The notes: a model not told the origin generated them from the letters alone. A DNA stretch of 64,000 nucleotides from Myxococcales bacterium (GCA_050118535.1 JASFKR010000005.1:5199-69198), one strand, 5' to 3'. Positions 36,520 to 45,969 are shown, counted from the first letter of the stretch. Numbers and translations are program-made.

Positions 36520-39500
36520 TCAGTTCACGCTCTCGCAGACCACGTCCCGGTCGTTGCCGCAGTCGTTGTCGTTCCAGAAGCCGTCGTTGTCGCGCATCTC
36601 GGCGCAGTCCTCGCCGTTGGAGTCGTTCGGCTCGCCGCCGTTCCAGTTTTGGTAGAGATTGTTTACGACGTTGCCGTTGTCGTCGCCTTGCCAGAACTGC
36701 TCGCCGTCGGGCCAGACCCAGACTCCCTCGCTGCTCCGATCGTTGGCACCGATCCAGGCGTTGTCGCTCCCGAGCAGCCCCTCGACGAAGTCGTTCTCGA
36801 GCTGGTCGTCGATGCGGACCAGGTCCATGCCGACGCTCTGGCACAGGCTCCTGGCCTCGCTCCAGGTGCGGCCGGTGCTGCATCGGTAATAGAAGTGCCC
36901 CGTCTCCGGCTCGACCAGGCTGCCGCAGTCGCCCGCCGGCTGATCCGGCGGGAAGTACGGCTCGGGGCCGGTGCAGCAGCGGAAGCCCACGTTGCCGAAG
37001 GGCGCGTCCTGGGGCCAGAACGACCCCTCGAAGCCGCAGGCGGAGCCCTTCGCGAAGTTGTTGTAGGCGCCGCCACGGACCATGATCTGGCCGTCCTGCA
37101 GGTAGGTCAGCTCCTTGACGTTGCCGTTGAGGTCGTACACCCCGCCCACGTTACAGGTGTTCACGCTGCCGGTCGCCCAGATGGGATTCGACATGCCGTT
37201 GGCATCCGAGTCGAAGTTGCAGGAGCTGGTGGTGGCGGTCGCGGTGCAGCTCCCGCCCTCGCTCCACTCGTAGTCGTCGGGGCCGGTGCCGCCGCAGGCG
37301 CAGGCCCCGAACCACTCCGCCCGGGTGCACAGGCGCGCGCCGGCCGCCACACAGGCCGCCTGGGCATCCGCGTAGCTGATGTTGGTCCACGGGAGGCGGT
37401 CCGCCACCGAGCACGCCCGGTTTTCGGCTCCGCCCGCGCTACCGGCGTTGGCGTCCGGCCGCGAGGCTTCGTAGGCCTGGATGTAGCTCGAGGTGGCGCC
37501 GATCTGCACCCAGCTGTCGCGCACGCAGATGCTCTTGGCGTCGCCGGCGGGGCCGTCGTCGACGCAGCCGGTGTCACCCGGCAGACAGGGTCCGGTCTCG
37601 GAGGCGTTCAGGCACGGCTCGTCCACCAGGCCGTCGCAGTCCTCGTCGACGCCGTCACAGGTCTCGGTGTCGCCGGCCGCGCCCTCGCCGAGCTCCACGC
37701 CGGTGTCCCTGTCCACGCAGGTCAGGGTGAACTGGTCGCCGCTGTGGTCGATGGCGCAGGCCAGCTCGCCGGGCAGACGGCACTCGCCCACGCCCGGCCC
37801 CAGGCAGTCGTCGCCCTCCGCGAAGCCGGGATCGGCCCCGACCCCGGTGGCCAGGTTGATGACGTCCTCGTCGACGCGACCGTCGCAGTCGTCGTCCGGA
37901 TCGCTGCCCGCGTTTTGGCAGCCATCGTTGGCCTCGGGCAGGACGTCGCAGCTCCAGCCGTAGACGCCCGTGCCGATCTCCTCGCACACCGGCACCGACC
38001 CGTTGCACGCCCCGTCCTGGTCGCAGTAGTCGGCGGCGCTGGGCGTGTTCGCCGCCAGATCGGCCGTCTCGTCGATCGCGCCGTCGCAGTCGTTGTCCTC
38101 GCCGTCGCACAGCTCGAAGTTGTCGGCGATGAAGTCGCAGGCGTAGTCGCAGTCGGCCTCCGGGGTGTCCGGATCGTCCTCGAAGCCGGACTCGCAGACG
38201 CCGATCTCGCAGGCCGGGGTCACCAGGTCGGTGTCGCAGCGCATGATCGCGTTGGTCACCTGGTTGCCCGGAGCCTCGCAGTCGTTACCGCAAATTCCGC
38301 AGTGGTCGATGTTGACGTATTTGCCGCCCTGCATGTCGACGAAGCCCTCGTCCACGTTGCCGTCGCAGTCGTCATCGTCGAGGTTGCAGCTCTCCGTCCC
38401 CGGGCTCCAGCTGTCCTGGACACAGGAGATCTGACCGCCCCGGCAACGGTAGGCCCCCCCACCACAGTTGGGGAAGCTGTCGTTGCAGACGTCCGTCCAC
38501 GGCGTGGATGGGTCATTGGGACAGCACGGGTCGCCGTCATCCGTGTTCGGATCGGGCGAAACCCAGCCTTCGTCCACGCGGCCGTCACAGTCGTCGTCCT
38601 GACTGTCGCAGACCTCGAAGGCTTCCGGACGAACGCCATTCTGGCACTGCAGGTCCGCACCGCCGGAACCGTCGGGCACGCAGGCCCAGGTGCCCGTGGT
38701 GCAAATGCCGCGAATCGGCCAGGTGTCGGTGCTGTCGGGGCCGCCGCTGAGCACGTTGCAGGCCTGGCCCGCGAACCGGGCGCCCTCGTCGATTCGGGTG
38801 TCGCAGTCGTTGTCGAGCCCGTCGCAAACCTCTGCGGTGGGTCCGGTGTAGGAGACGCACACGGCCTGGCCGCTGGAGCACACGGTGGTCCCCGAGCTGC
38901 ACTCGCCCGTGTTCATCTCGCCGGAGCGGTAGGTGTCCAGGACGCCGTCCCCGTTGGTGTCCTCGCGCCAGCAGGGCCCCACCGCGCCCAGGGGCGTGGT
39001 GGTGAGGTCGCCCTCGTCGGTGCGCCCGTCGCAGTCGTCGTCCAGCGCGTTGCAGGTCTCCACGTCCTCCGGCGTGACGCCCTCGTCGCAGACCACCTCC
39101 CAGTCCTCGACCGTGGGGCTGTCGTCCACGTCGGCGCAGATGGTCGTGCCCGGCGTGCAGATGCCGAGCTGGTTGCCGCAGGTGCGGTCCAGGGCCGGAT
39201 CGTTCAGGTTCGCCAGGTTGGCCGGCACGGGATCGCCATCGCAGTCCCGGTCCAGGTCGTCGCACAGCTCCTCCGCCGGCAGCACCTCGTTGCGGCACGA
39301 CAGTGAGCCGTTGGCACACACCAGTGCTCCGTAGGTGCACTCGCCGACCGCCGGGGTCCCCGGCGCGATCACCAGCGAGCCCGTGGCCGTCGAGCACTGC
39401 ACGCCATCGTCCAGGTGCAGCGTGTCCTGCACCACGACATCCTCGTCGACGCGCCCATCGCAGTCGTCGTCCACGTTGTTGCAGGTCTCGAAGTCGGCGG

Positions 39501-45969: not shown

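Follow-up and report, generated by a model that had tools for sequence, protein, structure and literature searches.

Introduction

The described systems closest to the gene examined here, a giant open reading frame (ORF) of 9.45 kb in a 64,000-nucleotide stretch of DNA from a Myxococcales bacterium (GCA_050118535.1, JASFKR010000005.1:5199-69198; this whole stretch is called the window, and positions are counted from its first letter), are myxobacterial surface proteins with a MYXO-CTERM sorting tag and bacterial lipoproteins. For the MYXO-CTERM prototype TraA, cleavage by the myxosortase MrtX, dependence on the tag Cys and surface display via the type II secretion system are experimentally established, and Guo et al. 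showed MrtX to be functional in Escherichia coli and suspect Lgt of being the MYXO-CTERM acyltransferase (PMC11980579). The same authors reported internal MYXO-CTERM motifs "in rare cases", with MXAN_5598 as the example, and stated that sorting tags work in the middle of proteins; MXAN_5598 was read by them as a gene fusion, and its N-terminal part was predicted to be processed (PMC11980579). Internal sorting tags are therefore already known as a curiosity, from MXAN_5598 and from the name of an NCBIfam model, 'midcut-by-XrtH'. Regarding lipoproteins, Lys at position +2 marks inner-membrane lipoproteins in Myxococcus xanthus, as Asp at this position does in Escherichia coli (PMC3222651), and a +2 Asp is required for secretion of the pullulanase PulA (cited in PMC3222651).

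In the product of the giant gene, both types of signal stand next to each other in the middle of the chain. A MYXO-CTERM-type tag, a short basic loop and a lipoprotein signal make up a hairpin-like segment (aa 1706-1785, hereafter the hairpin), which joins an N-half (aa 1-1749) headed by a von Willebrand factor A (vWA) domain to a C-half (aa 1761-3147) with MopE-type units, an FGE-like domain and a C-type lectin. The hairpin is conserved, and the fused gene is equivalent to a unit of two neighboring genes found in other Myxococcota. We consider it probable that the ORF is an in-frame fusion of this conserved two-gene unit, and that it encodes a polyprotein cut by myxosortase and by Lgt/LspA into a vWA adhesin and a MopE/FGE-like/lectin lipoprotein. 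The direct coupling of the tag to a lipobox seems to be undescribed, and so do the conservation of this arrangement across more than 50 genomes and the repeated switching between fused and split forms; a literature search found no paper on this family.

A sorting tag and a lipobox in the middle of a giant protein

Positions 36520-45969 hold an uninterrupted ORF on the minus strand, exactly where the initial annotation, made from the sequence alone, had placed a 9.45-kb gene. It comprises 3149 codons when counted from the GTG at 45969, the first in-frame start. The ATG at 45963, two codons downstream, is the likely start, and amino acid numbers are counted from this ATG unless the 3149-codon ORF is named (Table 1). 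The ORF is a genuine gene. Third positions of its codons have a GC fraction of 0.93, as in the other real genes of this window (70% GC), and gene calls on an 18.4-kb contig of a JGI metagenome include an identical 3147-aa protein with the same neighbors. With the whole protein as query, Pfam returned Cu-binding_MopE (155 bits), Lectin_C (75.8 bits) and FGE-sulfatase (41.6 bits) and no match to OmpA or a beta-barrel; an NCBIfam scan of the whole protein gave no match at E<=0.01, weak matches being obtained from sub-segments only. The nearest relatives of the source organism are uncultured Myxococcales/Myxococcota metagenome-assembled genomes (MAGs), and members of the family carry generic database names, such as 'MopE-related protein', 'vWA domain-containing protein' and 'SUMF1/EgtB/PvdO family'.

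Table 1. Features of the giant gene and the adjoining region, with positions in the window and the evidence for each
Feature	Residues (aa)	Position (nt)	Strand	Evidence or remark
Whole ORF from the probable ATG	3147 in all	36520..45963	-	stop codon 36520-36522
N-terminal Sec signal peptide, MLRKSLVLGSVVAAVSLLTVVSAASAQA	1-28	45880..45963	-	read from translation
vWA domain with MIDAS	29-298	45070..45879	-	fold model, Foldseek, alignment, weak profile matches
N-half array, 15 MopE-type units with interleaved Cys-rich beta-hairpin modules	300-1320	42004..45066	-	Pfam, self-built profile
Cys-rich stretch, ~355 aa	1321-1676	40936..42003	-	translation
(GD)n / Gly-Ser linker ahead of tag	1677-1705	40849..40935	-	translation
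Internal MYXO-CTERM-type sorting tag	1706-1749	40717..40848	-	motif, TIGR03901, alignment A1
Short basic loop LGWLSKLGVTE, predicted cytoplasmic		40684..40716	-	charge pattern
Internal lipoprotein signal LMLALLVAFSLLAGG (putative): h-region LMLALLVAFSLL, lipobox A-G-G-C, Cys1776 (codon 40636-40638)		40636..40683	-	motif, homology
Predicted mature lipoprotein start C-KVEPFCLDC, conserved, Lys at +2		40609..40635	-	alignment, DNA pattern
Acidic (GD)n linker past lipobox	1786-1847	40423..40608	-	translation
C-half array, 13 MopE-type units with interleaved Cys-rich modules	1852-2784	37612..40410	-	Pfam, self-built profile
FGE-sulfatase-like domain	2811-3002	36958..37533	-	Pfam
C-type lectin domain, EPN (36622-36633), WND (36562-36576)	3013-3147	36523..36927	-	Pfam, alignment
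Ser/Thr kinase-GAF-sigma54 activator gene	~1600 in all	46198..51144	-	context only, adjoins giant gene
Conserved upstream block CGTCTTTACTTGGGGCCCGCGCGGTGTCATTTAGACA, ~40 nt		46021..46058	-	60-95 nt upstream of ATG

The junction of the two halves (40609-40848) reads ...IIAS-GGGGCTCS-VPVGAVAPQAGGSGSRG-ALALALFGLGLVVLG-RRRR-LGWLSKLGVTE-LMLALLVAFSLLAGG-C-KVEPFCLDC.... The tag consists of the GGGGCTCS signature (40825-40848), the transmembrane (TM) helix ALALALFGLGLVVLG (40729-40773) and the Arg cluster RRRR (40717-40728), and it is not C-terminal, ending at aa 1749 of 3147. The putative lipoprotein signal starts fifteen residues past the tag, and the pattern of a hydrophobic h-region followed by [LVI]-[ASTVIG]-[GAS]-C is matched by LMLALLVAFSLL-A-G-G-C. 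At +2 relative to the lipobox Cys, the window protein has Lys; Asp occupies this position in 42 of the 74 loci described below. The loop between the two helices is basic and stop-free. Between the two Cys residues the median number of Arg plus Lys is 8 and that of Asp plus Glu is 1, and the flanks are acidic (9 and 15 Asp plus Glu), which fits a hairpin whose loop is cytoplasmic and whose two arms are exported; (GD)n linkers are present on both sides. In the +1 frame a TGA overlaps the Met codon ahead of the second helix (CTGATG, 40680-40684, minus strand). This may be the trace of an ancestral overlapping stop/start that was joined in frame by an indel downstream of RRRR, or a chance occurrence.

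The same unit in fused and split form

Among 120 listed homologs, 47 (27-53% identity) contained the tag and lipobox hairpin near the middle of the protein. In an alignment of 43 sequences (A1) neither the tag Cys nor the lipobox Cys varies, the lipobox G-C is almost invariant, and the consensus reads RVLA-GGGGC-x-C ... RRRR ... G-C-[DK]-V-[DE]-P-[FY]-C-L-[DT]-C. The hairpins of 28 of these 43 relatives matched TIGR03901, the curated MYXO-CTERM model, at E<=0.1 (best E 5.6e-8). A profile search with the hairpin identified 46 proteins among 1.84 billion representatives, showing that the module is rare.

A 33-nt degenerate DNA pattern encoding G-C-x-V-[DE]-P-[FY]-C-x-x-C was run against 185,579 species, each represented by one genome. 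Seventy-five loci matched, of which 74 have titles that are either Myxococcota (mostly Polyangia; the groups named are Sandaracinaceae, Polyangiales, Polyangiaceae and Haliangiales) or uninformative MAG labels; a locus in a Planctomycetaceae MAG was rejected as a chance match. By reading frame, 52 loci are fused, 16 split, 2 frameshifted (L027 and L036, both long-read MAG loci with the damage at the junction), 4 at contig edges and 1 the chance match; the pattern finds only loci with a well-conserved mature N-terminus, and these counts are minimum figures whose fused/split ratio may be biased. In all 16 split loci the upstream gene ends in the tag and a stop codon (e.g., ...RVLAAGGGGCTCRIVG...WRRRNGGTR and stop), and the downstream gene opens with Met, a signal and the same lipobox (MSRLLQRFATLSALGLAAGALAGC-DVEPYCLTC in L026). 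The two genes are usually in different frames and some overlap, for example by GTGA in L035. In L022, the sole split locus with a readable upstream N-terminus, the upstream gene begins with a signal peptide and a vWA MIDAS (metal ion-dependent adhesion site).

Because split genes start with the same segment, the internal signal of the window protein, which is not placed at an N-terminus behind an initiator Met and a basic n-region, is homologous to a true N-terminal lipoprotein signal in 16 split loci; likewise, the segment before it is homologous to a true C-terminal tag, as the split upstream genes end with it. Fused and split forms are close relatives: the C-halves of L035 (split) and L059 (fused) are 72% identical, and a neighbor-joining tree of 68 C-halves, a quick distance tree on repeat-rich sequence, requires at least five changes of state, which implies functional equivalence of the two forms. 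The initial annotation had taken interruption of the ORF in independent assemblies as a sign of a pseudogene. No interruption occurs in the orthologs P0001 (syntenic) and P0002, both of them fused and 44-53% identical; in the wider family, a quarter of the members are normally interrupted, precisely at the junction.

A fused gene is carried by Sandaracinus amylolyticus (P0041). Some genomes contain several members. In the Myxococcales MAG JAOUOP01 (L001), P0024 and P0002, both with the hairpin, are encoded ~5 kb apart and divergently (1-5129, minus; 10001-18967, plus), and several other MAGs hold 3-4 copies, e.g., the OZ245758.1 chromosome (L018, L024, L052 and L067). P0156 (2982 aa), from a lower-GC organism, is rich in Asp, Glu, Asn and Lys and has (DT)n in place of the (GD)n linkers. 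It retains the whole layout, including the tag, lipobox and FGE-like domain, with a different C-terminal domain; the design thus spans distant lineages.

A polyprotein model and its alternatives

If the giant protein is a polyprotein, its processing could proceed as follows. The N-half would be exported via Sec until transfer is halted at the tag helix, so that RRRR and the basic loop stay cytoplasmic, and the second helix would then act as an internal signal that restarts export. The resulting membrane hairpin would put both Cys residues at the periplasmic face. The tag Cys would be lipidated and then cut by MrtX, and the lipobox Cys would be modified by Lgt and cut by LspA, yielding two lipid-anchored proteins in a 1:1 ratio and a hairpin remnant of ~60 aa. 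Lys at +2, and the Asp of most relatives, mark inner-membrane lipoproteins in M. xanthus and E. coli, respectively, and the C-half may therefore avoid the Lol pathway, being either retained in the inner membrane or exported by a pullulanase-like type II route; this part of the model is speculative. The vWA head and the FGE-like/lectin tail would most likely end up on different mature proteins, with a likely function in adhesion to matrix, prey or other cells.

Several points weigh against this model. Cleavage at either site is predicted from sequence features. The tag of the window protein reaches 14 bits against TIGR03901 (E 0.051; profile positions 1-33 of 34 aligned), below the cut-off of 20, and the lipobox was assigned by motif, hydropathy and homology to the N-termini of split genes. 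The model requires Lgt/LspA to accept a lipobox after ~1760 residues, and MrtX to accept a tag with ~1400 residues behind it. The presence of mrtX in the source genome is assumed from its reported universality in Myxococcota, and internal GTG or TTG starts may also be used.

An uncut giant polypeptide would fit part of this evidence. The two hydrophobic segments would form a permanent hairpin anchor in the inner membrane, both halves would be periplasmic or membrane-bound, and the tag and lipobox would be unprocessed relics of the fusion. The continuity of the ORF in the window and its orthologs agrees with this explanation, as do the sub-threshold tag score and the fact that cleavage is a prediction. 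However, relics would decay, whereas the fused forms (43 aligned proteins, 52 loci) retain both Cys residues, GGGG, RRRR and G-C-x-V-[DE]-P-[FY]-C, and close relatives have switched between the fused and split states at least five times. We regard an uncut anchor as unlikely.

Two further explanations are less probable still. The C-half could arise by internal translation initiation at Met1762, just ahead of the second helix, the ORF then being two overlapping cistrons. The window gene does have an ATG directly before the h-region, and split relatives use coupled, overlapping starts. However, a Met at the corresponding position is kept in only 8 of the 43 fused proteins, no obvious Shine-Dalgarno sequence could be read ahead of this ATG, and ribosomes on the N-half would read through anyway when no stop codon intervenes. 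Initiation at an internal ATG is unlikely as a general route, and the low retention of the Met suggests that the C-half is normally made by read-through. The other explanation was proposed by the initial annotation: a single adhesin with vWA at one end and lectin at the other, bridging cells, prey or matrix. Both domains look ligand-competent, with an intact MIDAS and lectin EPN/WND motifs. This proposal missed the conserved sorting hairpin that lies between the two domains, the halves of the family are separate genes in 16 genomes, and the lectin was found only in the window protein and P0001 when the 120 listed homologs were considered. A bridge on one polypeptide is accordingly improbable.

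Finally, the suggestion that the single ORF results from an assembly or sequencing frameshift or a recent pseudogenizing indel can be rejected with near certainty: one indel would suffice to join the overlapping genes of split relatives, L027 and L036 are frameshifted at the junction and the window has the +1-frame TGA, but the identical protein is present on a second metagenome contig, orthologs are intact and fused alike, 52 fused loci come from many unrelated assemblies, third-position GC is high along the ORF and the inter-helix loop is basic and stop-free. A polyprotein derived from a two-gene unit, probably processed at both Cys residues, is the reading we retain.

Domains of the N-half

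The N-half has the layout expected of a MYXO-CTERM surface protein, with a Sec signal peptide, vWA head, MopE-type units, Cys-rich stalk, GD linker and tag. The signal peptide is evident in translation, as the initial annotation had noted, and the N-termini of homologs are similarly hydrophobic. The MIDAS is formed by DTSGS at aa 38-42 (45838-45852), a conserved Thr in GLTP and an Asp in LTDG, and none of its residues (D12, S14, S16, T129 and D172) varies among 22 aligned relatives (A2). The initial annotation had expected domain searches to recover vWA and Lectin_C at the two termini. Lectin_C was indeed recovered, whereas the vWA domain of the window protein scored below the Pfam gathering threshold (VWA_2, 15.8 bits versus a cut-off of 27). 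It is nevertheless a real vWA domain with an alpha/beta Rossmann-like fold. Eight of the 22 aligned relatives matched PF00092 (best E 9.6e-10), the AlphaFold2 model has pLDDT 83 and pTM 0.86, and all 50 listed Foldseek matches of this model in PDB were of the vWA type (E down to 5e-7), the top ones including the pilus adhesins PitA, SpaC and PilB, PTMP1 and integrin I domains. A vWA/MIDAS head points to metal-dependent adhesion at the cell surface.

The Cys-rich stretch that follows the N-half array had been described as EGF-like. The stretch itself is real, ending with two ~50-aa repeats of the form C..C.NP....CGA.G.C that are also found in relatives (P0145); the label found no support, and no Pfam family, EGF included, matched aa 1324-1673 at E<=10. 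The (GD)n linkers of the initial annotation are visible in translation.

MopE-type units and domains of the C-half

MopE-type units, C-x-G-x-D-[DN]-[DN]-C-D-G-x-x-D-E, are 14-18 residues long. A profile built from the protein's own units detected 26 clear and 2 degenerate copies, in agreement with the earlier estimate of about 28; 15 precede the mid-protein junction and 13 follow it. The predicted structure of a module of two units with a beta-hairpin has pLDDT 92, and Foldseek found no match to it in PDB. The acidic D-x-D-x-D-G-x-x-D-E loops look Ca2+-binding, and the general idea of a disulfide-rich, probably Ca2+-stabilized envelope or adhesion protein is upheld.

The C-half reads as a lipoprotein precursor composed of an h-region, an AGG-C lipobox, an acidic linker, MopE-type units and the FGE-like and lectin domains, both of which had been recognized previously. 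FGE-sulfatase (PF03781) matched aa 2854-2998 of the 3149-codon ORF with 41.6 bits (threshold 23.3) at profile positions 86-253 of 255. The closest solved relative is the non-catalytic paralog SUMF2/pFGE (E 2e-4, weak alignment). The segment RGGAYNNFAKGSAC has no Cys at the positions of the FGE catalytic pair, which we take to lie within RGGSYMCHRSYC, in an alignment that is weak here; the domain is probably non-catalytic. Lectin_C (PF00059) matched aa 3034-3146 of the same ORF with 75.8 bits (threshold 22.6), and the closest solved relatives are the carbohydrate-recognition domains of the mannose receptor and DC-SIGN. When aligned to these receptor domains, the residues of Ca2+ site 2 and the sugar site (EPN ... 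E ... WND) are present as GEPNDSNGEDCAEM...FWNDNDC, and the motif predicts a mannose-type (EPN) sugar site. Only the syntenic ortholog P0001 shares the lectin among the 120 listed homologs (42% identity, EPN and WND kept). Judged by this distribution, the lectin is a recent addition and no general trait of the family; it therefore cannot explain the family architecture.

Genomic context and upstream region

The P0001 locus is fully syntenic with the window, with genes for NamZ, the kinase-GAF-sigma54 activator, the giant protein, a metallophosphatase and LarC-, LarB- and AIRS-type proteins followed by mraZ-rsmH-ftsL-ftsI; the window has the same gene order and includes much of the dcw cluster. 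The adjoining activator gene encodes a Ser/Thr kinase, an Ala/Arg-rich (80% GC) TPR-like middle, GAF, a sigma54-activator AAA+ domain and a helix-turn-helix domain. It neighbors the giant gene in all three orthologous loci (the window; L077, 4941-9713; L001, 21112-25992), in tandem in two and convergent in one; near P0002 its orientation differs from that in the window. L077 has an almost unchanged copy of the block upstream of the giant gene and L001 retains part of it; this conserved block may be a promoter or operator. A sigma-54 promoter, suggested by the conserved activator neighbor, was rejected, as TGGCAC-N5-TTGCW had fewer matches than in shuffled sequences and none of these was intergenic; a scan for the sigma-70 consensus upstream of the giant gene gave no match, and the block fits neither sigma-70 nor sigma-54.

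The dcw cluster (11400-28782, minus) includes genes for an FtsI-type penicillin-binding protein with PASTA (26272-28755), MurE (24780-26279), MurF (23353-24780), FtsW (19477-20865) and MurC (16685-18085), with further genes to ~11400. The giant gene lies ~8 kb upstream of this cluster, as in L077 and not in L001. MXAN_5598 is also located within a cell-division cluster, according to Guo et al. (PMC11980579). We rejected the adjacency as a functional link; it is not conserved in L001 and is probably a coincidence.

Downstream of the giant gene and convergent on it, AIRS-domain, AIRC (LarB-like), Ni_insertion (LarC-like) and metallophosphatase genes (32647-36449, plus) are syntenic in L077 and may be a set of the lactate-racemase-cofactor type. 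A NamZ-type exo-beta-N-acetylmuramidase gene (53045-54226, minus; E 9e-64) lies upstream of the activator gene, and is also syntenic in L077. In L001, a TMEM260_N (GT-C-type glycosyltransferase-like) gene (19063-21105) is directly downstream of the P0002 gene, and no counterpart was seen adjoining the window gene. Two antisense ORFs on the plus strand opposite the two big genes (39415-43170, 1251 aa; 46909-51132, 1407 aa) were rejected as genes: they are high-GC shadows, third-position GC being higher on the coding strand.

Implications

If the polyprotein model is true, dozens of giant Polyangia proteins filed as single 'MopE-related / vWA / SUMF1-family' entries are two-protein units. With 52 fused loci, 16 split ones and five or more switches between the states, the pair offers a natural control. 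The family makes three questions testable: whether a sorting tag that is normally C-terminal works in mid-chain; what enzyme attaches the lipid to the MYXO-CTERM Cys, as the hairpin sets it beside a classical Lgt substrate; and whether a myxobacterial lipoprotein with +2 Asp/Lys takes a type II route together with its tagged partner.

Comparison with known systems

The unit motif is shared with MopE of Methylococcus capsulatus (PF11617, 155 bits in all). In contrast to MopE, the window protein has 28 tandem units with beta-hairpin modules and nothing that suggests the His/kynurenine copper site, and its loop appears more Ca2+-like. The head of the N-half resembles vWA adhesins, such as CglB of M. 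xanthus gliding, PitA, SpaC, PilB and integrin I domains, in having the vWA fold and a complete MIDAS at the distal end of a long surface structure. It differs in its extra Cys-rich insertions, and it is not a member of the CglB family, whose model gave a weak N-terminal match (E 4e-4; 19.5 bits versus a cut-off of 200).

Lipoproteins processed by Lgt/LspA, including PulA, share the h-region, the [LA]-[AG]-G-C lipobox and a +2 residue preventing Lol sorting. Unlike theirs, the signal of the window protein is not N-terminal, and the Arg cluster of the preceding tag takes the place of its 'n-region'.

A normally C-terminal tripartite sorting signal in mid-protein, followed by more exported protein, is also the arrangement of NCBIfam NF033207, 'midcut-by-XrtH protein', which was weakly matched by 6 of 43 hairpins, and of two proteins designated P0146 and P0149. 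These belong to other sorting systems (exosortase), carry unrelated passenger domains, and are known from model names and sequences; we found no literature on them. Both P0146 and P0149 were obtained in the hairpin profile search. P0146 (1659 aa) has 4-5 internal PEP-CTERM tags (VPEPSTYAMAGLAL...RRKR), and a new signal peptide comes after each of them. P0149 (3293 aa) consists of two near-identical halves joined by a GCDCS tag, TM helix, RRRR and lipobox; its actual C-terminus bears another tag. Envelope polyproteins may extend beyond this one family. More tentatively, and with considerable doubt, the tag-loop-signal hairpin could be a portable 'resolution cassette', through which one Sec-translocated polyprotein is cut at two lipidated Cys residues on the same membrane face, possibly using the same acyltransferase (Lgt); together with its apparent recurrence with PEP-CTERM (P0146) and with another Cys tag (P0149), this would make bacterial envelope polyproteins a general overlooked design.

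MXAN_5598, compared here by its description only, likewise has an internal MYXO-CTERM motif, preceded by an N-terminal region that resembles an adhesin and followed by another envelope protein. Its downstream part is an outer-membrane beta-barrel with OmpA, whereas in the window protein a lipobox directly follows the tag and leads to MopE, FGE-like and lectin domains. MXAN_5598 is also a single case, without a described series of split and fused forms or vWA/MopE/FGE content.

Compared to TraA, the tag of the window protein is internal, with ~1400 residues following, and falls short of the model cut-off; a vWA domain takes the place of the TraA variable domain as the head, and the partner is a lipoprotein and not an OmpA-type beta-barrel such as TraB. 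In other respects the N-half follows this MYXO-CTERM prototype of M. xanthus (Guo, Haft and Wall 2025, PMC11980579), with which it shares the signal peptide, N-terminal binding domain, Cys-rich stalk, linker and tag, and traA adjoins and overlaps the gene of its partner, traB, as some of the split pairs described here do.

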